NCBI GenBank assembly: GCA_001875345.1
Contig: MIZA01000012.1
Span: 25,656-89,655, forward strand
DNA from: Marine Group III euryarchaeote CG-Epi1
GTDB taxonomy: Archaea; Thermoplasmatota; Poseidoniia; MGIII; CG-Epi1
Length of the DNA stretch: 64,000 bases
Direction of reading: 5' to 3'
In this document: positions 3,610 to 52,775 of the stretch, piece after piece
How positions within the stretch are numbered: position 1 is the stretch's first letter
Layout: each line of letters opens with the position of its first letter
Program-made: the position numbers and the translations under genes
The notes under the pieces: model-generated
What the model was told of the DNA's origin: nothing
Databases searched by the model: none
The model's input: only the letters and a program-made list of their open reading frames with translations

Positions 3610-3654
3610 GGGGGCTTCGGCCCCCACTTACCAAACTTTTTTTATATTTTTTTT
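3610..3654. terminator. GC-rich hairpin plus T-tracts between two convergent genes
   Basis: GGGGGC-TTCG-GCCCCC (3610-3625), a 6-bp all-GC stem in an AT-rich genome, followed by T7 (3637-3643) and T8 (3647-3654). It sits between the pilin gene (+) and cca (-). Confidence 0.5.
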
Positions 3655-4834
3655 AATCTAACCAAGGTACACGTTGGATCGGTTTTGCACCTTCACACAT
3701 CCCTTCTTTTACTATTGCATTAGGTAGAAGAGATTTCACTACGTCTTCGATTGTCTGATTTTTTGGTTTTTTACCAATTTCCAATTTCTCATTGTTAAGT
3801 ATTGCGTTCGGATATTTTTTTAGAAATTCAATTGCTCCGTCTTCCCAAGGAGCTGGGCCTTTGTGTGATACTATCTCAGGTAGTTTTCGCATTCCAGTTT
3901 CTACAACAATATAACCTTCGCTTCCCATATTTGCATTCCATGCAATTGGTTCAAAGTCATGAAGCGCTCGATATATTTTTCTTCCTTGCCTTTGTAACCA
4001 TGGCATTACAGTTTCTTCATTCTCTCCTGGAAGCGATAAAATAATACTTGTCAGATTTCCTTGAAACTCTCTTTCCTTATATTTAGGGAAAAAGAAATTA
4101 TGTGATGGCTTATCAAGGAACGATTTAGAAGCCAAGACTGCAGTTCCGAGTCCTTTCAAAGTTACTCCTGCAGCTACATTTCTTTTATTGTCTACAGGGT
4201 CACAAATCATTATTGGAGATTCAGGAGTTTCCATTTTATCAATAATAATTGGAGGTCTCCATTGGGACATTTCTTTTATTAGATTTAAGAATCCTCCATA
4301 TTTTATGCAAAGTATTTCTACTAAATAGCCTGAAAATCCACCTACTGCGGAATTTGCACCGTAGGCTCCGACAGCCTTTAGGAACTGTTTTGTCAATCTA
4401 ACTTCATTTTCTAACCCATTTATATTGGATATTACCCAATCAGTATGGAATGGTGTTCTGTCTACCGCAGATACAGATTGGGTAGAGTCTTCAATTGCAA
4501 AGCAAGGTACCAAATCTATTCCCACACCATCTATTTCTCCTCTCAAATAGGGGTGCTGTGCGTAGAGTTCTTTACCGTTGGGAAGTATTTTCTTTGCCAC
4601 AGCTAAGCCTTCTTTTTTCAAATCGGATCCTTTTTGAAATATTAAAAAAATATCAATGTCAGTTCCAGCCAGAAAAGTTCCTTTTGCTATTGATCCTACA
4701 ACTTTAGACTCAAAAGTTGACATTTCTAAAGCCTTTATCTTCTCAAGAATATTATCTCTTAAGTTTATAATTTTTTCTCTTTCTTCAAGTTTTGGTTGGA
4801 CTTGTTCTAAGGCTTCAGCTATTATTCCTTTCAC
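3653..4834 (-). CDS. cca: CCA-adding enzyme (archaeal class I tRNA nucleotidyltransferase)
   Basis: N-terminus ...LEQVQPKLEEREKI...VGSIAKGTFLAGTDIDIFLIF carries the class I nucleotidyltransferase G[ST] ... DxD motif. The length of about 390 aa and overall layout match archaeal CCA enzymes. Confidence 0.85.
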   Translation of the reverse strand: MKGIIAEALEQVQPKLEEREKIINLRDNILEKIKALEMSTFESKVVGSIAKGTFLAGTDIDIFLIFQKGSDLKKEGLAVAKKILPNGKELYAQHPYLRGEIDGVGIDLVPCFAIEDSTQSVSAVDRTPFHTDWVISNINGLENEVRLTKQFLKAVGAYGANSAVGGFSGYLVEILCIKYGGFLNLIKEMSQWRPPIIIDKMETPESPIMICDPVDNKRNVAAGVTLKGLGTAVLASKSFLDKPSHNFFFPKYKEREFQGNLTSIILSLPGENEETVMPWLQRQGRKIYRALHDFEPIAWNANMGSEGYIVVETGMRKLPEIVSHKGPAPWEDGAIEFLKKYPNAILNNEKLEIGKKPKNQTIEDVVKSLLPNAIVKEGMCEGAKPIQRVPWLD

Positions 4835-5334
4835 TCTTCTTCATCTGCATGGTTGACTTTACCTTTACGCCATGCTTTTGTTCTTTCCTTTTCAGCCCTT
4901 TTTCTTAATGTTTCAATATCATCTTTAACAGGAAGAAAGATAGGAATAATGAATATTATAAGTCCAAAAATTAATGCCAATATTCCCCATAATAAATATT
5001 TTCCAGTAGTTATAGCTTCTAAAAATAATGAGATAAGTATAAGAGATAAAATAGTAGAAATCCAAATTATTTTTCTGAAGGCCTTCTCAGATATTACATA
5101 TTTATCTTTTTCTTCCAATATCTCAACCGAGAATTCAGCGTTTGGTATTTCAATCTCCTCTTCGTTACTAACTGGTCTTTCAAGTTTTAATTTTCTTAAG
5201 TATAAATGACCTGCGATTCCAGATATTATGAAAGCAGCCTGCCCATAACCAGGATCACCAGCTGCAGTTGCAGCCCAAACGGCATACAACATTGTTAACC
5301 ATATTGTAACTATTATTGCGTTATACAAGTCCAT
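4831..5334 (-). CDS. Hypothetical membrane protein
   Basis: Four hydrophobic helices, an acidic loop and a K/R/E-rich tail. Its stop overlaps the cca start by 4 nt. No family was recognised. Confidence 0.45.
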   Translation of the reverse strand: MDLYNAIIVTIWLTMLYAVWAATAAGDPGYGQAAFIISGIAGHLYLRKLKLERPVSNEEEIEIPNAEFSVEILEEKDKYVISEKAFRKIIWISTILSLILISLFLEAITTGKYLLWGILALIFGLIIFIIPIFLPVKDDIETLRKRAEKERTKAWRKGKVNHADEEE

Positions 5335-5347
5335 GATTATCCGAGAT

Positions 5348-6337
5348 TTAGACTTTACTTTCCATAGTAATTGCCTCTACAGGACAGGCGAAAGCACAGA
5401 GAGTACAACCTACACAAGTATCATCTAAAATTAATGCTTTTTTGGATTCGAATTGCGAGGTTCTTGCTTTCAAGTCCCAAGATATCATATCAATTGATGC
5501 AAAATTACAGTAATAAACACATTGAGTACAACCTATGCATTTTTCGTTATCTACTAAAGCAATGTAATCTTTACCTTGAGGAAGAGATTTGAGAGTTATT
5601 TTTCTTAACTCTTTGAACATATCTTTAGCTTTTTCTATACCTGTTGTAGGTAATTCATCATCATCTACGGCTTCTTTAACTCTTTTAAGCCATTTATTAG
5701 GTTTATGAAAGAAAAGGGATGCAGTTCCCATTGCTTGATATGCTGAAGTTCCAGCACTTTCTTCAACAACAGTTTCAGCTTCAGTTTCTATTACAGCACC
5801 AGAGGCATAAGAGGCCATACTGTCAACTAAGTCAGCTTGAAATGTACCGTCACTGTCTACACAAGCTAGTTTTGACATTGCACCATTCATCCATTGCTCT
5901 GCAGGATCTTCAAAGTCAACGTCACAGTCAACCCTATCGTGTATTCTAGTGCCCCCCATAGCTTCCATGGTTTTATCCCAGTCCTTACCAGATTCACAAA
6001 ATAAATCGTAACCTGTATCTCCAAGTGCACAAATTGAAAAATGGGTGTTGGTTAATATTTTACCAACGCCGACTGCTGCTTCGTACAATTCTTCAGCATT
6101 GTCTGGCATTTCGCCTTCTCCCCAGGTAGAGCATACAATCATTACCCTAGACATTCCGGACATTGAATTAATATCAAAACCATCCATATCATGAACGGTA
6201 GGATTCAATCCGTATTTTTTACCTTCTTTTTGCCATTTTTCGGCAAGACCTTCGGAGTTTCCACTCTGGGATCCGTATAAAATGTGTAAATCTCTGTTCC
6301 CTTCTGTTGCGAATGTTGCAATGTCTACATCAGACAC
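5348..6337 (-). CDS. Flavodoxin (FMN) domain fused to a 2x[4Fe-4S] ferredoxin domain
   Basis: N-terminus ILYGSQSGNSEGLAEKW ... STWGEGEMPDNAEE is a CysJ/CPR-type FMN-binding flavodoxin signature. The C-terminus has CIGCTQCVYYC and CVGCTLCAFACP cluster motifs. It is the last redox gene of the Rieske/cytochrome b operon. Confidence 0.75.
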   Translation of the reverse strand: MSDVDIATFATEGNRDLHILYGSQSGNSEGLAEKWQKEGKKYGLNPTVHDMDGFDINSMSGMSRVMIVCSTWGEGEMPDNAEELYEAAVGVGKILTNTHFSICALGDTGYDLFCESGKDWDKTMEAMGGTRIHDRVDCDVDFEDPAEQWMNGAMSKLACVDSDGTFQADLVDSMASYASGAVIETEAETVVEESAGTSAYQAMGTASLFFHKPNKWLKRVKEAVDDDELPTTGIEKAKDMFKELRKITLKSLPQGKDYIALVDNEKCIGCTQCVYYCNFASIDMISWDLKARTSQFESKKALILDDTCVGCTLCAFACPVEAITMESKV

Positions 6338-7233
6338 TACTTTCCATCCTCCAGACAGGCAACCAAGAATTGCATTAAATCCATCATTTCATAATCATGA
6401 TGGTGCCCTTCTTCAGGATTCATGCGTTCTTCATTAAGCATACATTGCATATGCATGTAACATTTTGGACATCCTCCTAGCATAATATCAATGCCAGCAT
6501 CTGTACCCTGATCAAGTCTCTTTCTGCGTACAGCTTTAGTTGCGTCGTTGCAATACATCATTGATGATACTCCACAACACAGTGCCCTTTCTTTGTTATT
6601 CTCCAGTTCTACCATAGTTGCACCATCAACTAATTGTATCAAATCTCGAGGTGCTTCGTATTCACCCATCATTCTTCCAAGACGACAAGGGTCGTGATAA
6701 GAAACGGTCACATTTTCAGGAGCCTTAAACTTCAGTCCTCTACCCTGTAACGTTTGTGTAATATGTTCAACTTTTATCCCAAGCGTATTAGGTAAATCAT
6801 AGTCTACAGCAAAAGTGCGATAGCATTCAGCACATGAGCAAGTTAGAATCTTTATTCCGGATTCTTTTAATCGCCTCATATTATGCTCTTTTAAAGCATC
6901 ATAAACTTCCAAATTACCTTGCCATAACTGGTCATGGCCTGAACATTTGAATACATTCATATCCAGAACTAAAGGATCGATGTCTGCATAATTCAATAAT
7001 TTAATTGAAGCTGCAGCAATTGATGCGTGATCAGCATCTCCTTTGTTCAAGTGTGTAAATTTAACTTCAACATCCATAAAGTCGACACACCCAGGAAAAT
7101 ATCCATATTCATGATATCTTTCAGGTTTCCATTCATTTGACTCTTTGTTCATAGCATCATCTACAATCAGTCTTTCAAAAAGTGGATGAGGAATTGATCT
7201 TGCGTATGTTTTTTGTCTAGGTTTATCGCTCAT
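6337..7233 (-). CDS. Cysteine-rich CCG-domain protein (HdrB/GlpC/GlcF/SdhE-like, two CCG domains)
   Basis: First CCG domain is degenerate: PGC ... KCSGHD ... CSCAEC. Second is canonical: DPC ... ALCCGVSS ... GGCPKC. The start overlaps the upstream gene's end, and the stop abuts the flavodoxin gene start at 6337. Confidence 0.75.
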   Translation of the reverse strand: MSDKPRQKTYARSIPHPLFERLIVDDAMNKESNEWKPERYHEYGYFPGCVDFMDVEVKFTHLNKGDADHASIAAASIKLLNYADIDPLVLDMNVFKCSGHDQLWQGNLEVYDALKEHNMRRLKESGIKILTCSCAECYRTFAVDYDLPNTLGIKVEHITQTLQGRGLKFKAPENVTVSYHDPCRLGRMMGEYEAPRDLIQLVDGATMVELENNKERALCCGVSSMMYCNDATKAVRRKRLDQGTDAGIDIMLGGCPKCYMHMQCMLNEERMNPEEGHHHDYEMMDLMQFLVACLEDGK

Positions 7234-8359
7234 AAGCTACACCTCCTGCTGGAGTGCCTCCAACGCCAGGTATATCAAGAGCAGCACCTTCGGTAGAAGC
7301 TCCCAAGGTAGCTAGAAGTCTTTGTTCTAGCACATAATCTACATATTCGATATTCTGAGGGCATACTGCAGTACACATTCCACAAGAAATACATGACCAT
7401 AGAGCGACACCATCGTGTTTATTCTGGAATGTATTGAATATAATATTCAATTCATGTTCGCCTTCCATGTCTCTTACGGGACATATGTCATCACATAATC
7501 CACACTGATAACATCGATTTAATTTGAATTCATAAATACGTTGCATTCTTCTATCTTGAATACCTTTAGTGTAAAGATCAAATCTTTCTTCGTCACTTAG
7601 CGGTTTAGCACCTTCGGATCTTCTTCTGTCAAGGAACAGATAAGTTATCAGAGCGCAAGCAATAGGGCCCCACAAAGTAAGAGCATAGAGTAAGTCGGTT
7701 GTAACTTCAGGATAGTAAAGAGCTATATTTGCATTAATTGAAAAAACAGATAGCATAATTACCATTGCTATACCATAAACGCCGATTGCAGCTCTAACAG
7801 GATCTTCTATAGGTCTTCGTTCATGACCTCTATTAATTACATCTCCATATTGAGGATCAATAACTGCACCTAATGCCCTATCTATGAATGGAACTGCAAC
7901 AACTAGTCCAACAATAAGCCCTTGAACTAGAGTACCCCAAACTTTTGCACTCATCAAAAATAGTTCGATGTCGTCTAATCCTAGGAAAGGAATCATAGAG
8001 AGAGGTAGCCCTATTTTCAAATCAGTAGCAACCTTTAGACATCCAAAAGCCCACAACAAATACCAATCAGGTAGTGGAGGTGGATAGGCTGTACCGGCAG
8101 TAGGATCAGCAGACTCGTGTAATGGAGGTGGAACGAATGCTCCCAAATAAAACATAATTGATAGGACATAAAATGTGTAGACGGTATCTCTTGATAATTC
8201 GTGAGGATAAAGAGGCTCACCCTTTACCAGGCTTGCTTCTAGAACAGAGTGTTCTTCACGATTTTCTAGTTTTCTTATTGTATCAAGTTCTTGTTGTTCC
8301 TGTATAGATTCGCCTATCATTTCTGATGCATCATCTTCTAATATATTTTCTTCGCTCAT
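7223..8359 (-). CDS. Cytochrome b C-terminal half (subunit IV-like) fused to an HdrC-like 2x[4Fe-4S] domain
   Basis: PPPLPDWYLLWAFG is the Qo-site PEWY-type motif of the cytochrome b C-terminal domain. Several TM helices follow, then CYQCGLCDDICP and CISCGMCTAVCP dicluster motifs. Confidence 0.75.
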   Translation of the reverse strand: MSEENILEDDASEMIGESIQEQQELDTIRKLENREEHSVLEASLVKGEPLYPHELSRDTVYTFYVLSIMFYLGAFVPPPLHESADPTAGTAYPPPLPDWYLLWAFGCLKVATDLKIGLPLSMIPFLGLDDIELFLMSAKVWGTLVQGLIVGLVVAVPFIDRALGAVIDPQYGDVINRGHERRPIEDPVRAAIGVYGIAMVIMLSVFSINANIALYYPEVTTDLLYALTLWGPIACALITYLFLDRRRSEGAKPLSDEERFDLYTKGIQDRRMQRIYEFKLNRCYQCGLCDDICPVRDMEGEHELNIIFNTFQNKHDGVALWSCISCGMCTAVCPQNIEYVDYVLEQRLLATLGASTEGAALDIPGVGGTPAGGVAYER

Positions 8360-9312
8360 TAGTGAGGTTCAGCCTCCCCTTGGATCCATACTAACGCCAT
8401 ATGAATTATCATAAGAACTGTACCTACTAAAGGAAGTACAAAAATATGAAGCCAGTACATTCTTGTTACAGTATCTGCAGTAACTTGCGTTCCTCCAAAT
8501 ACGATTTGAGCCATTAATGGGCCCATTGCAGGGATAGAAGTAGCCATTTCAAGGCCAATTGCAGCAGCGGCATATCCGAGTGCATCCCATGGCAGTAGAT
8601 ATCCCGTGTAACCAAAGAAAATAGTTACAAGTAATAGTATAACTCCTAGAATCCAGTTAACTTCTCTCGGATTTCTGTAAGCACCTACAAAGTAAACTCT
8701 CATCATGTGTAAAAATACTGCTGCGACCATGAAGTGTGCAGCCCAATGATGTATAGCTCGCATTATGTATCCAAAAGCTACTTTTGTCATTATGAGTTCC
8801 ATAGATTGATACGATCCCGATGTGGCATGACCGTTTTCGTCAAAAGTTATTTCACCATCAGGTATATAGTAGAATCCAAGATAAATTCCAGTTATAACTA
8901 AGATTATATATGCAAAAAACGAAAGTCCTCCTAGCGAATAGAAAGGATACCAATACCAAACAGATTTTACATTGTACCTTTCAGTGTGGGATTGTGGCAT
9001 TGTCCTTCCACTTGAAGGTAAAAGTGTGAATACAACTGAATAATATTCTCGTTTGGCCAGAGAAGCATATCTGTGTAAAGCAAATCTTTCATCAAACCAG
9101 TTCCATGTTGCTAGCAATACTCGTGGAAGAGTTCCGGAAACATACAAGTACCCTACAGTCAGTACAGCCAATAATAACTGAAGGAAAATTAATGGGAAAG
9201 TATATTTCCTCATTAACTCTTCAATTATAGGTGTATCTCCAGCAGCACTGACAGGTAGTGCAAAGAAAGTAATACTTCCCAATAGTGCAGCCAAAAGTAG
9301 TCTTATTTTCAT
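8359..9312 (-). CDS. Cytochrome b N-terminal half (b6-like, bis-haem)
   Basis: HWAAHFMVAAVFLH (H-x13-H), HIFVLPLVGTVLMIIH (H-x14-H) and YTGYLLPWD are classic cytochrome b/b6 features. I place the start at the ATG at 9312-9310 (MKIRLLL...), which forms an ATGA overlap with the Rieske stop. The track ORF extends to 9336. Confidence 0.85.
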   Translation of the reverse strand: MKIRLLLAALLGSITFFALPVSAAGDTPIIEELMRKYTFPLIFLQLLLAVLTVGYLYVSGTLPRVLLATWNWFDERFALHRYASLAKREYYSVVFTLLPSSGRTMPQSHTERYNVKSVWYWYPFYSLGGLSFFAYIILVITGIYLGFYYIPDGEITFDENGHATSGSYQSMELIMTKVAFGYIMRAIHHWAAHFMVAAVFLHMMRVYFVGAYRNPREVNWILGVILLLVTIFFGYTGYLLPWDALGYAAAAIGLEMATSIPAMGPLMAQIVFGGTQVTADTVTRMYWLHIFVLPLVGTVLMIIHMALVWIQGEAEPH

Positions 9313-9995
9313 CCTTGTCCGCAATACTTGAGCCATTCGATTTGAGTCATTAGCCCAACTAAACCTCCATCTTTTTCTTCTATAGGTACCACAGGAAGAC
9401 CATAAGGAGCTGGTCCTTCTAATAATTCGGCAGCCATAACTTCACGACCTTGTTCATCTACGTTTTTGATAACTGAGAGTGGATCAAATAACGATAAATG
9501 ACATGGACATAAGAACATATTTTCGTAATCATTTCCACTGATAGTACTTGTCCCTTCCGCGCTAAAAACAGGTTTACAGCACAAGTGAGGGCATTTGTAT
9601 GTGTGGTACGCCATTAGATATGCATTACCATCATCTACACTTACTCCCAGACCATTCATAGATGGCTCAGCAGGTACTTTGGCCAAGGCTAACTGTATCT
9701 CACAAGCTCCCAACTCTTGTTCTAAATCTTTTGGAGCCCAATCGACAATTGCTACATCCCAAAGATTAAAATCTTCTTTTTTAGCGACACTTCCACCCAT
9801 GTTTTCATACCATTTCCCGCTTTCAGATTTATAAGTTAAGGTCTCGTGGGCATCATCATCGTTACACCTAGTAACTGGCGGTGGAAGCAATGTTTTTAGT
9901 GCAGGAACTGCAAGAGCAGTGGTCATTCCAGCTCCAGCTAATCCTATTGCACCCTGTAAGAATCCTCTTCGAGTTATATTCATTTTATCTTTCAA
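9309..9995 (-). CDS. Rieske [2Fe-2S] protein with a Tat signal
   Basis: Twin-arginine TRRGFLQGAIGLAGAG. Cluster boxes are CPHLCC (C-x-H-x-x-C, with Cys in place of the usual Gly) and CPCHLSLFD (C-x-C-H). Confidence 0.85.
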   Translation of the reverse strand: MKDKMNITRRGFLQGAIGLAGAGMTTALAVPALKTLLPPPVTRCNDDDAHETLTYKSESGKWYENMGGSVAKKEDFNLWDVAIVDWAPKDLEQELGACEIQLALAKVPAEPSMNGLGVSVDDGNAYLMAYHTYKCPHLCCKPVFSAEGTSTISGNDYENMFLCPCHLSLFDPLSVIKNVDEQGREVMAAELLEGPAPYGLPVVPIEEKDGGLVGLMTQIEWLKYCGQG

Positions 9996-10194
9996 GTTTT
10001 GTTATAACTTTACTCCTCCTCTTCTTTAGCTCTAAAACATCAGGCAAAAACGATCTTCTATAGAAATCAATCATTAATCCCATTATCATAAATGCCATAG
10101 CTAGTGTAAATGAAAGGAATTGTTGATCCCATCCTTCCAATATTCCATATATAAATAATGAATCATACATTATTTCAAGAACTAATAAAATCAA
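9985..10194 (-). CDS. Small two-helix membrane protein; 5' end unresolved because the frame stays open upstream to 10368
   Basis: The track ORF starts at a TTG at 10194. My translation of the same frame upstream gives ...ITEVNDLLEKIAKGEITPEDAQKLLGTYKDEDLGKVVRETPGKEQGEIFAIV with no ATG, GTG or TTG. Its end overlaps the Rieske start by 11 nt. Confidence 0.4.
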   Translation of the reverse strand: MILLVLEIMYDSLFIYGILEGWDQQFLSFTLAMAFMIMGLMIDFYRRSFLPDVLELKKRRSKVITKLER

Positions 10195-10336
10195 AACAAT
10201 AGCAAATATTTCACCTTGTTCTTTACCTGGAGTTTCACGTACTACTTTTCCTAGATCTTCATCTTTGTATGTTCCTAATAGTTTCTGTGCATCTTCTGGA
10301 GTAATTTCTCCTTTGGCTATTTTTTCGAGTAAATCG

Positions 10337-11032
10337 TTAACCTCGGTAATGTGAACTACCTCCTCTAATTACGACGTATGCTAATAATATCATAACAAAT
10401 ACCACTGCTATTGCCAGCAAGGCAATCCAGTACTGCATTAAACTTACGCCCAATTCATGTATTGAAGCTTCTTCAGAGACTACTTGGGGAGTCCCTATTG
10501 ATACTGAAGAAATATATCCCCATTGATCTCCATTCGTTCCAACTCCATTTACTACATTATAATATATTGTGAATAAAGCATCTCCAGCACCCTCACTTGG
10601 TGCAGTCCATTGAAAAGTCCAATTTCGTTGTGCATTACTATCTGCATTATGAGAAATATATTTTCCACCTTCACCTATCCAGTAAAGTGCGCCAGTTTGG
10701 AATGCCCCTTCACTAACTTCAGCTAAGAACCCTCCATAGCGGATGGCTTCAGGATCTGAAATTACATTTGTATCATTAATTACAAGAGAAATATTGTACG
10801 TTGTATCGGGAACATATTTGGAAGGAATGCCGTCGAGCATATACATGCCTTCATCTAGTTGTTCATCCATGTGGCATGAACAGCCATTAGCAATGCTGTC
10901 TTTTGCCCAATCTTCTCCAGCACCTTGCTGATCACCTCCTGCAGGGTAACCGTTAACACTCATGCCGACAGACATGACTGTAATCAATAAGATTGCAAGT
11001 AGTGCGTAAGTTCCTTTTTGATTCGTAGCCAA
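10337..11032 (-). CDS. Membrane-anchored extracytoplasmic protein with a conserved-looking C-x-C-H motif (function unknown)
   Basis: Has an N-terminal signal or anchor helix, NGCSCHMD near the N-terminus, a beta-rich body (NWTFQWTAPSEGAG) and a C-terminal TM helix with a basic tail. It is the first gene of the Rieske/cytochrome b gene string. Confidence 0.55.
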   Translation of the reverse strand: MATNQKGTYALLAILLITVMSVGMSVNGYPAGGDQQGAGEDWAKDSIANGCSCHMDEQLDEGMYMLDGIPSKYVPDTTYNISLVINDTNVISDPEAIRYGGFLAEVSEGAFQTGALYWIGEGGKYISHNADSNAQRNWTFQWTAPSEGAGDALFTIYYNVVNGVGTNGDQWGYISSVSIGTPQVVSEEASIHELGVSLMQYWIALLAIAVVFVMILLAYVVIRGGSSHYRG

Positions 11033-51605: not shown

Positions 51606-52775
51606 TCACTTTCCAATTTCACGAGCAATTACTAATCTTTGGACTTCTTGAGTTCCTTCATAAATTTGAGTGATTTTTGCATCACGGAAAAATCTTTCTA
51701 CAGGGAAATCTTTTGTGTATCCATACCCGCCTAATACCTGTACAGCTCTTTCTGAAACCCACATTGCAGTATCGCCTGCACTTAGCTTTGCAATTGAAGC
51801 TTCAAGTGTATGGCGCGATGATCCATTTTCATAATGTTCTTGTTTAGCCCATGCAGCTTTGTAAACTTGTAATCTTGCAGCATCAATTCTAACAGCCATA
51901 TCTGCCAGATAATTACTTATTGATTGGTGAGCGGCTATTGGTTTACCGAAAGTTTCCCGTTCTTTTGAATATTTCAGTGCAGCTTCGTATGCTCCCTGTG
52001 CAATACCAAGTCCTTGAGCAGCTATACCTATTCTTGAATTATCTAACGCATTCATTGCAATTGGAAACCCTTTGCCTACATCTCCAAGAACGTTTGCTTT
52101 TGGTACTTTACATTCATTTAGAATTAATGTACATGTATCACTTGAACGGATTCCTAGCTTGTCTTCTTTCTTTCCAATTTCAAATCCTTCAAACCCTTTT
52201 TCAATTATAAAACAAGTCACTCCTCCGTGACTCTTTTTTCCGTAATCAGGGTGATCAGTTACTTTAGCAAATAGAACGAAGAGATCTGCAGTAGTTCCGT
52301 TTGTAACCCACATTTTTTCACCATTCAAAGTATAGTGTTCTCCATCATCTGTAGCTCTTGCTACCATTGCAGCAGCATCTGTGCCCGAACCGGCTTCACT
52401 CAAAGAATATGCACCTAAGAATTCTCCAGAGGCTAATTTTGGTAAATATTTTTCTTTTTGTTCTTCATTTCCACTCAGTGCTATTGTCATCGAGCAAAGT
52501 CCGACATGGACTGCTATCATGACTCCTAAAGACGGATCGACTCTTGACAATTCTTCGACAACAATTGCCTCTGAAATATCATCTAATTTCTGACCGCCAT
52601 ATTTTTCAGGTATGGTCATTCCTGCAAATCCTAGTTCTGCGAATTTTTTGAATTCCTCAATAGGTGCAATTTGTTCCTTATCTCTCTTGTTACAAGTAGG
52701 CCCAGCAACATCTTCAGCAAATTCACGTACCATTCCGCGAATCATTTTTTGGTCTTCGGTTTCTGCAAAATCCAT
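51606..52775 (-). CDS. Acyl-CoA dehydrogenase
   Basis: ...GAYSLSEAGSGTDAA..., WVTNG, QVLGGYGYTKDFPVERFFRDAKITQIYEGT.EVQ. Confidence 0.9.
   Translation of the reverse strand: MDFAETEDQKMIRGMVREFAEDVAGPTCNKRDKEQIAPIEEFKKFAELGFAGMTIPEKYGGQKLDDISEAIVVEELSRVDPSLGVMIAVHVGLCSMTIALSGNEEQKEKYLPKLASGEFLGAYSLSEAGSGTDAAAMVARATDDGEHYTLNGEKMWVTNGTTADLFVLFAKVTDHPDYGKKSHGGVTCFIIEKGFEGFEIGKKEDKLGIRSSDTCTLILNECKVPKANVLGDVGKGFPIAMNALDNSRIGIAAQGLGIAQGAYEAALKYSKERETFGKPIAAHQSISNYLADMAVRIDAARLQVYKAAWAKQEHYENGSSRHTLEASIAKLSAGDTAMWVSERAVQVLGGYGYTKDFPVERFFRDAKITQIYEGTQEVQRLVIAREIGK

Follow-up and report, generated by a model that had tools for sequence, protein, structure and literature searches.

A Marine Group III Rieske/cytochrome b operon with an HdrD/EtfD-type Fe-S module attached to subunit IV

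Introduction

Among Rieske/cytochrome b complexes, the b6f complex, the Firmicute-type b6c complex and the haloarchaeal halocyanin-Rieske cluster have a cytochrome b that is split into a b6 half and subunit IV, the haloarchaeal form with an eighth helix (Baymann 2012), and many archaeal complexes are without cytochrome c1 or f. Another kind of complex, exemplified by HdrDE, DsrMK and QmoC, joins a dihaem membrane cytochrome b of the NarI type to a cytoplasmic Fer4 dicluster and CCG domains, linking the quinone pool to cytoplasmic redox reactions without a Rieske protein or a quinol-oxidising (Qo) site. Here we describe an operon of the Marine Group III (MGIII) euryarchaeote CG-Epi1 whose products combine two known kinds of system, a Rieske/cytochrome b complex and an HdrD/EtfD-type Fe-S wire; the combination has been noticed in passing and never characterised. 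The operon lies in a stretch of 64,000 nucleotides with a low G+C content of about 36% (NCBI GenBank assembly GCA_001875345.1, contig MIZA01000012.1, positions 25,656 to 89,655), hereafter called the window.

The closest solved parallel to the CCG part of this system is mycobacterial EtfD, whose homologs are electron-transfer flavoprotein (ETF):menaquinone oxidoreductases. Its structure (PDB 9OJN) places a linear [3Fe-4S] cluster at the 4-Cys site CCG1 and a noncubane [4Fe-4S] cluster at the 5-Cys site CCG2, and the wire was described as running from ETF through two cubane clusters and the b haem to menaquinone. Attachments to cytochrome b are also known. In bacteria, cytochrome b has been described as fused to 4Fe-4S/MvhD or ferredoxin-flavin modules in clusters that lack a Rieske gene, evidence that other bioenergetic complexes too can make use of cytochrome b (Kao & Hunte 2014), and an ancestral cytochrome b with an attached cytoplasmic oxidoreductase and a Rieske protein has been postulated (Dibrova 2017). 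Ferredoxin has long been suggested to feed the n-side haem cn in b6f (Dibrova 2017).

Nearer to MGIII, Tully 2019 reported cytochrome b, Rieske and a lone 'RnfB', with no canonical bc1, in Marine Group II (MGII). Diamond et al. 2022 noted in one sentence that hdrD-like and rnfB-like genes lie beside complex III in Angelarchaeales and suggested that ferredoxin enters there; the subunit IV fusion, the cysteine patterns, the distribution in MGII and MGIII and the first-slot protein are not part of their analysis. Our searches of the MGIII/Poseidoniales literature returned nothing on this module beyond these two papers. An original prediction for the window, drawn from its sequence, knew of no characterised complex with this subunit set. 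None was found in the literature searched, but the association itself had been noted by Diamond et al. 2022, and cytochrome b-FeS fusions in bacteria by Kao & Hunte 2014.

Results

A conserved operon in Marine Group III

Eight genes, numbered g7 to g0 in the order of transcription, form a single, tightly overlapping operon on the minus strand of the window (4831-11032; Table 1). The seven open reading frames of the original prediction were all found where it had placed them, and all of its domain calls held in profile searches; downstream of them lies an eighth conserved gene, g0. As predicted, g3 and g2 overlap by 11 nucleotides (7233/7223), g4 and g3 have base 8359 in common, and g2 and g1 base 6337. 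Two further junctions depend on the choice of start codon. The ATGA at 9312-9309 joins g5 and g4 only if g4 starts at its second ATG, the first being at 9336, and the 9995/9985 overlap holds for an alternative TTG start of g5 at 9995 (the g6 stop is at 9985-9987), the ATG at 9983 (MNITRRGFLQG) being likelier.

Compared loci and proteins are given L- and P-numbers, respectively. A search with the g3 protein retrieved 39 loci of MGIII (class Poseidoniia) at 59-98% identity. Genes g7 to g1 are complete and colinear in 29 of them, the remaining 10 being interrupted by contig ends, and g0 is colinear in 24 loci. The operon is real and strongly conserved.

Table 1. Genes of the operon in transcription order, with window coordinates and the evidence for each assignment
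Gene	Product	Position	Strand	Basis
g7	membrane-anchored extracytoplasmic Reeler-fold protein	10337..11032	-	NCBIfam choice-of-anchor V 1.5e-18; weak Reeler signal
g6	DUF7318 small membrane subunit, ~121 residues	9985..10350	-	Pfam DUF7318 2.9e-11
g5	Rieske [2Fe-2S] protein exported by twin-arginine translocation (Tat)	9309..9995	-	Tat signal; TIGR01416 2.6e-8
g4	cytochrome b6-type dihaem subunit, helices A-D	8359..9336	-	PF00033 (Cytochrome_B) 5.5e-38; solved b6 3.6e-40
g3	subunit IV-like C-half of cytochrome b (helices E-H) with cytoplasmic 2x[4Fe-4S] domain of HdrC/HdrD type	7223..8359	-	profiles, hydropathy
g2	cytoplasmic double-CCG protein	6337..7233	-	PF02754 x2 2.5e-16; TfrB C-terminal half 3e-24
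g1	CysJ/MioC-type flavin mononucleotide (FMN) flavodoxin domain (17-150), linker, 2x[4Fe-4S] ferredoxin (260-327)	5348..6337	-	profiles, PDB
g0	small membrane protein, three transmembrane helices	4831..5334	-	hydropathy; 13 nucleotides 3' of g1

A Rieske/cytochrome b6 core with an Fe-S tail on subunit IV

The operon encodes the Rieske/cytochrome b6-type menaquinol oxidase, or complex III analogue, of MGIII, which appears to be the sole Rieske/cytochrome b set described for the group, following Tully 2019 on MGII. Its b6 subunit g4 has four haem histidines that align to those of solved b6 (H-x13-H and H-x14-H, for two bis-His haems on helices B and D). The haem ci cysteine is absent, YSLGG standing where b6 has CxGG, and the positions equivalent to bc1 His201 and b6 Arg207, after the bn ligand, are Trp and Ile in a sequence alignment. 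The N-terminal extension of cytochrome b6 varies: in MGIII it consists of two extra transmembrane helices, and in high-G+C Thermoplasmata (L043:1169-3802; L049:898-3174) of four extracellular Big_5 Ig-like domains and one helix.

The Rieske protein g5 carries the ligand boxes C135-P-H-L-C-C140 and C163-P-C-H166. Taken alone it falls under the Pfam Rieske threshold (0.056); in a ten-member family alignment the twin-arginine, CxHxxC, CxCH and the GPAP..LP..P proline loop are invariant, and the family profile finds Thermus Rieske (6.8e-15) and QcrA (~1e-12) in the PDB. Its two potential-tuning positions hold Ser168 and Phe170, which suggests a mid-range potential.

The match of g3 to subunit IV is weak in Pfam (PF00032, 0.043), orthologs reaching 1e-9 to 1e-12 with the same profile; other profiles gave Fer4_8 at 3.8e-10 and, in NCBIfam, QcrB at 4.9e-8 and HdrC at 3.9e-8, and in the PDB HdrC was found at 1.3e-5, the Fer4 region of EtfD at 1.8e-4 and QcrB at 2.7e-4. 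The Qo motif PDWY lies in the first outer loop, between helices E and F. This motif class is tied to menaquinol and to low- to mid-potential Rieske proteins; together with the Ser/Phe pair of g5, it therefore indicates a menaquinol, mid-potential system. Behind the membrane part stand two CxxCxxCxxxCP motifs, an HdrC/HdrD-type dicluster of the sort found ahead of CCG domains. Hydropathy gives four transmembrane helices in g3 (59-77, 149-167, 190-208 and 223-241). Because subunit IV starts on the n-side in every known complex, four helices bring the chain back to the cytoplasm and put the Fe-S tail there, as had been predicted; the DRRRSEGAK with which it opens agrees with the positive-inside rule.

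In its split at the b6/subunit IV boundary, its haem ligand spacing, PDWY and a Tat-exported Rieske protein, the core thus resembles b6f, the Firmicute-type b6c and the haloarchaeal cluster. With the last it further shares the eighth helix in subunit IV, a DUF7318-type gene 5' of the Rieske gene and the lack of c1/f. It differs in having no haem ci cysteine, cytochrome f/c1 or halocyanin, in the Fe-S tail on subunit IV and in the added CCG and ferredoxin/flavodoxin subunits. No CxxCH protein is encoded in the operon, and none of its products is a cytochrome c1 or f serving as third redox subunit.

The CCG protein follows the EtfD pattern

The next subunit, g2, has a CCG1 domain with 4 cysteines (C49, C97, C134, C137) and a CCG2 domain with 5 (C183, C219, C220, C255, C258). 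Its best solved match is M. smegmatis EtfD (9ojn_A, 3.1e-14), as against ~1e-5 for HdrB. NCBIfam gave TfrB at 3e-24 (C-terminal half), DsrK at 2.5e-7 and HdrB at 4.5e-4, with scores far under the family cut-offs. In the alignment to 9ojn_A, C97/C134/C137 correspond to EtfD C538/C581/C584 and C183/C219/C220/C255/C258 to C637/C672/C673/C709/C712. The printed alignment begins at g2 residue 75, and C49, judged by where it lies and by its invariance, is the presumed counterpart of C503. Glu136 takes the place of the EtfD ligand His583.

Where HdrD and HdrBC have two complete CCG motifs (CX31-39CCX35-36CXXC, twice), whose two noncubane [4Fe-4S] clusters make up the site of disulfide reduction, window g2 has only CCG2 complete; its CCG1 reads KCSG, with one cysteine and without the 'supernumerary' cysteine specific to Hdr. 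Nor is the membrane partner a NarI-like HdrE: in this operon it is b6/subunit IV. The original description of the module as an Hdr-like disulfide reductase was not borne out, since the 4+5 cysteines are those of EtfD and not the 5+5 of HdrB/HdrD. With HdrDE, DsrMK and QmoC the operon has in common the dihaem cytochrome b joined to Fer4 and CCG domains, and differs from them in the points given above.

The predicted cofactor order matches that of EtfD and of syntroph EMO: two membrane-near cubane clusters, a 5-Cys noncubane CCG site and a 4-Cys CCG site. EtfD, however, consists of one polypeptide, in which a single haem is resolved and whose membrane domain has five helices of the NarI/HdrE-like kind; the operon is not built in this way. 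The MGIII system differs further in having a Rieske protein and a Qo site, subunit IV as anchor, a module split over g3 and g2, an extra ferredoxin/flavodoxin subunit and the substitution of Glu for His583.

A census of CCG motifs found the EtfD-type pattern in MGIII and in the nearest fused relative (P0121), with a single 'CCG' in P0124 as well. The other family members examined have two full motifs, among them the distant relatives L041, L043, L050 and P0128-P0143 (P0128 being from MGII). Since these keep both motifs, the CCG family is taken to be ancestrally HdrD-like, MGIII having shifted to a pure-wire pattern.

The module is a single chain in most other lineages

Outside MGIII the core of the operon recurs, at 30-57% identity, in five other lineages, which fall among high-G+C uncultured Thermoplasmata from soil and sediment (L040-L043, L049, L050), a metagenome-assembled genome labelled Halobacteria (L045), a low-G+C archaeon (L051/52) and MGII (L047/48), with a cytochrome b that bears the label Candidatus Poseidoniales/Poseidoniaceae. 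In most of these lineages one chain of 543-932 residues combines subunit IV, the Fer4 dicluster and the two CCG domains (for example L041, L043 and P0121/124/139/141/143), under annotations such as 'Fe-S oxidoreductase' or 'heterodisulfide reductase subunit D'; in MGIII and in L050 the module is split. The predicted linkage of Rieske/cytochrome b genes to Hdr-like genes is thus seen across lineages, in the MGIII loci and, as an outright fusion, in the fused orthologs. Domain identities, topology, fusion and conservation are established by the analysis.

An exhaustive HMMER scan of 1.84 billion cluster representatives gave only 286 matches, 12 with E <= 1e-30. In sequence space the architecture is thus rare, yet the organisms that carry it are very abundant. 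Taxon labels are sparse among plain subunit IV relatives.

The Angelarchaeales locus of Diamond et al. 2022, a Thermoplasmatota Rieske/cytochrome b set that lacks cytochrome c and has 'hdrD-like' and 'rnfB-like' genes next to it, very probably belongs to the same family as L040-L043. It differs from the window in having a plastocyanin-like protein where the window has the Reeler-fold g7. A Rieske/cytochrome b cluster of Methanoperedens (Arshad 2015) was considered as the same system and rejected, as it has no HdrD fusion. The bacterial 'PDWF-FeS' fusions and the anammox complexes are alike in having a whole cytochrome b, Qo motif included, fused or linked to 4Fe-4S, MvhD or flavin modules. They differ in that clusters of the 'PDWF-FeS' clade are without a Rieske gene, CCG domains not being reported there, and in that the anammox complexes have NAD(P)-binding flavoproteins and multihaem cytochromes.

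Several of the related loci have features of their own. The MGII version (L047:8001-10799, P0276) is a 932-residue single chain with an insertion of ~365 residues between the subunit IV helices and Fer4, and in L047 the ferredoxin gene and a g0-like gene are on the opposite strand. In the low-G+C archaeon (L052:4808-14955, also L051), genes for a multihaem cytochrome c, Rieske, cytochrome b and the subunit IV-Fer4-CCG fusion stand in a row, with HdrC-, HdrB- and HdrA-like (1010 residues) genes, MvhD and another multihaem cytochrome c directly 3'; a complete Hdr set thus adjoins a Rieske/cytochrome b complex. In soil Thermoplasmata a LUD + Fer4_8 + 2xCCG protein, LutB/LdhH-like and of the lactate-utilisation type, is encoded ~3-4 kb 3' of the operon (L043:10226-12409, L041:13972-16110).

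Flavodoxin and ferredoxin domains exchange in the last redox gene

The last redox subunit, g1, matched Flavodoxin_1 at 7.5e-27, a Fer4_21 dicluster at 3e-14 and the solved CysJ FMN domain at 7e-22. Against the cysJ model it scored 2.8e-37, over positions 58-203 of 597 only and with 128.6 bits against a cut-off of 668; g1 has the FMN domain and not the FAD/NADPH (FNR-like) domain of a CysJ/diflavin reductase. Nor is g1 an RnfB, reaching 40.9 bits against a cut-off of 68.7 with the ferredoxin domain alone matching; the window contains no other rnf genes.

A ferredoxin domain of the g1 type is kept in the same last-gene slot in MGII, L041/43, L049, L050 and L052, with varying surroundings by lineage. 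The flavodoxin plus ferredoxin form belongs to the window's subclade of MGIII. Other MGIII have a 275-residue polyferredoxin (L057:6406-7233) whose C-terminal ferredoxin domain is 75-85% identical to that of g1. The operon of L057 is otherwise identical to that of the window and has the same flanking cca and pilin genes, with a ferredoxin dicluster in place of the flavodoxin half. Exchange of flavodoxin and ferredoxin within MGIII may be iron-sparing. What fills the slot is always a pure electron-transfer module. It holds a plain ferredoxin in L050 and MGII, a polyferredoxin in L049, an HdrA N-terminus with ferredoxin and MvhD in L041/L043 and the full HdrC, HdrB, HdrA (1010 residues) and MvhD set in L052, and is empty in L045. 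The HdrA-like gene of L041/L043 was considered as a sign of a full HdrABC analogue and rejected: at ~510 residues it lacks most of the FAD domain, and it is absent from the window.

The flavodoxin domain of g1 also occurs elsewhere, at 52-60% identity. It forms the N-terminus of NuoC in a nuoA-nuoB-[Fld-NuoC]-nuoD order (L053:9001-10140, L054:3351-4490; P0537), and a second fusion joins it to an SdhB-like Fer2_3 protein, with a 285-residue CCG protein coming next (L055:7001-8674, L056:3379-5052; P0567). In related marine archaea, flavodoxin domains thus appear, from these gene fusions, to be tethered to several respiratory complexes.

A Reeler-fold protein in the first slot

The first gene, g7, encodes a signal anchor, an ectodomain of ~175 residues and a C-terminal transmembrane helix. 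Across 37 MGIII sequences, C51-x-C53-H54 and H128 never vary. For an AlphaFold2 model of the protein (predicted local distance difference test 68, core ~80), Foldseek ranked the F-spondin reeler domain first (E 4e-6), and the fold search gave no match to cytochrome f, cupredoxin or DOMON. The layout of g7 is that of cytochrome f: after a signal peptide, the mature chain has a Cys/His motif at ~22-25 residues, then a beta-rich domain, and is anchored at its C-terminus. It was therefore considered as a cytochrome f analogue, which was rejected when the Reeler fold was found. The literature searched contained no paper in which CXCH is described as binding haem. The signal has no conserved twin-Arg and looks Sec-type; a ligand set of two cysteines and two histidines behind such a signal suggests that g7 could suit copper or an unusual haem attachment.

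In L050 and in MGII L047 the first slot is likewise taken by homologs of g7 (E 2e-18). MGIII, MGII and L050 thus have a g7-type Reeler-fold protein there, the parent contig of L049 a 499-residue protein with a weak Reeler match, L045 a monohaem cytochrome c, L051/52 a multihaem cytochrome c and Angelarchaeales a plastocyanin-like protein (Diamond et al. 2022). Comparison of the first-slot proteins (window 10337-11032; L047:5055-5801; L050:3-695; L045:5425-5934; L051:5092-5817) showed that Reeler-type proteins and the c-type cytochromes of L045 and L051 are alike only in the C-terminal pre-anchor and transmembrane segment (ELG..L..YW[IL]GL...), and it looks as though the redox ectodomain was exchanged while the anchor was kept. 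The predicted absence of a c1/f subunit is therefore literally true, but its slot is filled by g7, with the C-terminal anchor of the c-type cytochromes of sister operons. By position, g7 is a candidate electron acceptor of the Rieske protein, with a presumptive redox role.

The second gene had been called a small membrane open reading frame; it does encode a small membrane protein, but its size and boundary differ, and it belongs to DUF7318. The g6 protein has a cytoplasmic N-terminal stretch of ~50 residues and a hairpin of two transmembrane helices. The 57 codons upstream of its first canonical start are conserved as protein across MGIII and overlap the 3' end of g7, and in the window this extension (g7/g6 junction, 10194-10371) contains no in-frame ATG, GTG or TTG. 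An ATT at 10350-10348 is invariant in all of the ~35 MGIII loci, 8 nucleotides 3' of an invariant GGAGG within the conserved C-terminal R-G-G codons of g7; about half of the listed MGIII loci have a GTG two codons upstream of it, and in L057 the gene caller gave a g6 counterpart of 123 residues. This pattern of conservation makes a non-canonical ATT start and translational coupling of g7 and g6 probable. Because the conserved coding sequence reaches the ATT at 10350, there is no 142-nucleotide gap between the two genes. A DUF7318 gene also lies 5' of the Rieske gene in L043, L045, L050 and the parent contig of L049.

At the other end of the operon, g0 matched no Pfam or NCBIfam family; a weak g0-like match adjoins the MGII cluster (E 7e-5), and g0 may be an accessory subunit. 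Its stop overlaps the GTG start of a downstream gene for CCA-adding enzyme (3653-4834) as GTGA at 4831-4834 of the window. The window gene was recognised by eye, and its L057 counterpart has NTP_transf_2 and tRNA_NucTransf2; since the same gene lies 3' of the operon in L057, this housekeeping gene may be co-transcribed with it.

Discussion

We tentatively read the Fe-S chain, with a probability of roughly 0.45, as an electron-input wire from the cytoplasm to haem bn and the quinone-reducing (Qi) site. On the cytoplasmic side of subunit IV, the chain would consist of two cubane [4Fe-4S] clusters in the g3 tail, then the two CCG-bound clusters of the EtfD type in g2 (a 4-Cys site and a 5-Cys noncubane site) and, at its distal end, two more [4Fe-4S] clusters and FMN in g1. 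As a tethered flavodoxin/ferredoxin subunit, g1 would collect low-potential cytoplasmic electrons, the donors being reduced ferredoxin or flavodoxin from 2-oxoacid oxidoreductases, or a flavodoxin reductase. Through the chain the electrons would reach haem b on the n-side, and quinone would be reduced at Qi. The same complex would oxidise quinol at Qo via the Rieske protein, which would pass electrons to g7 on the outer face, where sister operons have c-type cytochromes or blue copper proteins. The net result would be a ferredoxin/flavodoxin:quinone reductase hard-wired onto complex III. We infer the direction of flow, the donor and the docking of g2 and g1.

Input is favoured because both the CCG pattern of MGIII and its closest solved relative, EtfD, are those of a donor-to-quinone wire. 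The exchange of flavodoxin and ferredoxin at the distal end argues that this domain behaves as a soluble low-potential carrier, which also favours input, as does the presence of the flavodoxin domain on NuoC and on the SdhB-like protein, in each case at the far end of an Fe-S chain to quinone. Export at low potential is energetically tight in a menaquinol, mid-potential system. An optional input, moreover, appears compatible with the main respiratory flux passing through the sole Rieske/cytochrome b set. The independent proposal of the same idea by Diamond et al. 2022 gives further support.

Several observations weigh on the other side. Electronic contact of the g3 clusters with haem bn is itself something that we infer, and the canonical Qi residues are not recognisable in the aligned sequence of g4 (Trp, Ile); if there is no Qi site, the input would continue to Qo, or flow would run outward. 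In most members outside MGIII the CCG motifs are of the Hdr type and potentially catalytic, and in one lineage (L052) a complete HdrCBA-MvhD set adjoins the operon, so the ancestral function may have involved thiol/disulfide chemistry. No donor gene (POR/KOR, ETF, FNR) was found in or beside the operon in the window and L057.

The original prediction had proposed the opposite direction: bifurcation at Qo would send one electron to the Rieske protein and g7 and the low-potential one through haems bp and bn and the Fe-S/CCG/FMN wire to a cytoplasmic disulfide, flavodoxin or ferredoxin, instead of, or besides, reducing quinone at Qi. The architecture permits this, since the wire begins at the n-side of the b-haem chain, and one report proposes an analogous generation of NAD(P)H by anammox Rieske/cytochrome b complexes with extra cytoplasmic subunits (PMC12954380). 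The unrecognisable Qi residues fit it too, as do the two full CCG motifs of most relatives, like those of disulfide-reducing HdrB/HdrD. By our own estimate, however, bifurcation would yield ~275 mV, and electrons would in addition move against the membrane potential, which puts reduction of ferredoxin or NAD(P)+ out of reach and leaves a disulfide marginal. MGIII has lost the Hdr-specific cysteine of CCG1. If this is the sole complex III, as it seems to be for the group, the cytoplasmic acceptor would have to absorb half of the respiratory flux, and obligatory export on that scale is implausible. Together with the flavodoxin/ferredoxin swap and the flavodoxin domains on NuoC and the SdhB-like protein, which point to input, these considerations make export the less likely direction, and we regard it as unlikely. 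More doubtful still is the full version, in which Qo bifurcation in an aerobe exports electrons to give reduced flavodoxin, ferredoxin or thiol and a new Reeler-fold C-x-C-H/His redox protein serves the Rieske protein outside; if this is true, a respiratory complex III would also be producing low-potential reductant, in archaea that rank among the most abundant of the surface ocean.

Input could also take another form, in which electrons go straight from ETF, or some other soluble flavoprotein dehydrogenase, to the g2 CCG clusters and on to haem bn and quinone, g1 being an auxiliary or alternative entry; beta-oxidation and amino-acid oxidation would thereby be coupled to the quinone pool. The match of g2 to EtfD, with the same 4+5 cysteines and with homologs that serve ETF, speaks for it, as do the description of MGII/III as degraders of protein and fatty acids (Tully 2019) and an acyl-CoA dehydrogenase-like open reading frame at 51606-52775 of the window, recognised by eye from its translation. 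Yet the lineages examined have no etfAB in the operon or close to it, the ferredoxin subunit that this operon always carries is one that EtfD does without, His583 of EtfD is Glu in g2, and most relatives have cysteines of the Hdr and not of the EtfD type; direct entry of this kind is quite improbable. Lower again we rate catalysis on a low-molecular-weight or protein disulfide (of the DsrC, lipoyl or CoM-CoB kind) by an HdrD-type enzyme with b6/subunit IV replacing HdrE/DsrM, which we consider very unlikely. The Fer4 + 2xCCG order is that of HdrD, DsrK and TfrB, relatives have two full CCG motifs, HdrC-, HdrB- and HdrA-like genes with MvhD adjoin the operon in L052, and the last gene of L041/L043 is HdrA-like. 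In the window, though, KCSG leaves CCG1 one cysteine short, like the non-catalytic, solvent-shielded site of EtfD, and the operon holds no candidate gene for a thiol cofactor or carrier protein. MGIII are aerobic heterotrophs, and we know of no heterodisulfide metabolism in them.

The input wire to haem bn and Qi remains the reading that we prefer, and what it would mean goes beyond one operon. MGII and MGIII are among the most abundant planktonic archaea, and their 'missing complex III' has been remarked on and not explained (Tully 2019). The present analysis shows that in both groups an HdrD/EtfD-like Fe-S wire, carrying a tethered ferredoxin or flavodoxin, has been fused physically onto the Rieske/cytochrome b complex. 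The exchange of flavodoxin and ferredoxin in MGIII, with the Fld-NuoC and Fld-SdhB-like fusions, suggests an iron-sparing modular carrier that is plugged into several respiratory complexes, and the Reeler-fold C-x-C-H protein on a cytochrome c anchor may be a new type of extracytoplasmic redox protein. If the wire feeds haem bn and Qi, it would answer how these aerobic archaea re-oxidise reductant at the level of ferredoxin and flavodoxin. It would also provide a natural, hard-wired model for the debated ferredoxin:quinone reductase route of b6f in cyclic electron flow, and a living representative of the ancestor that Dibrova et al. proposed.

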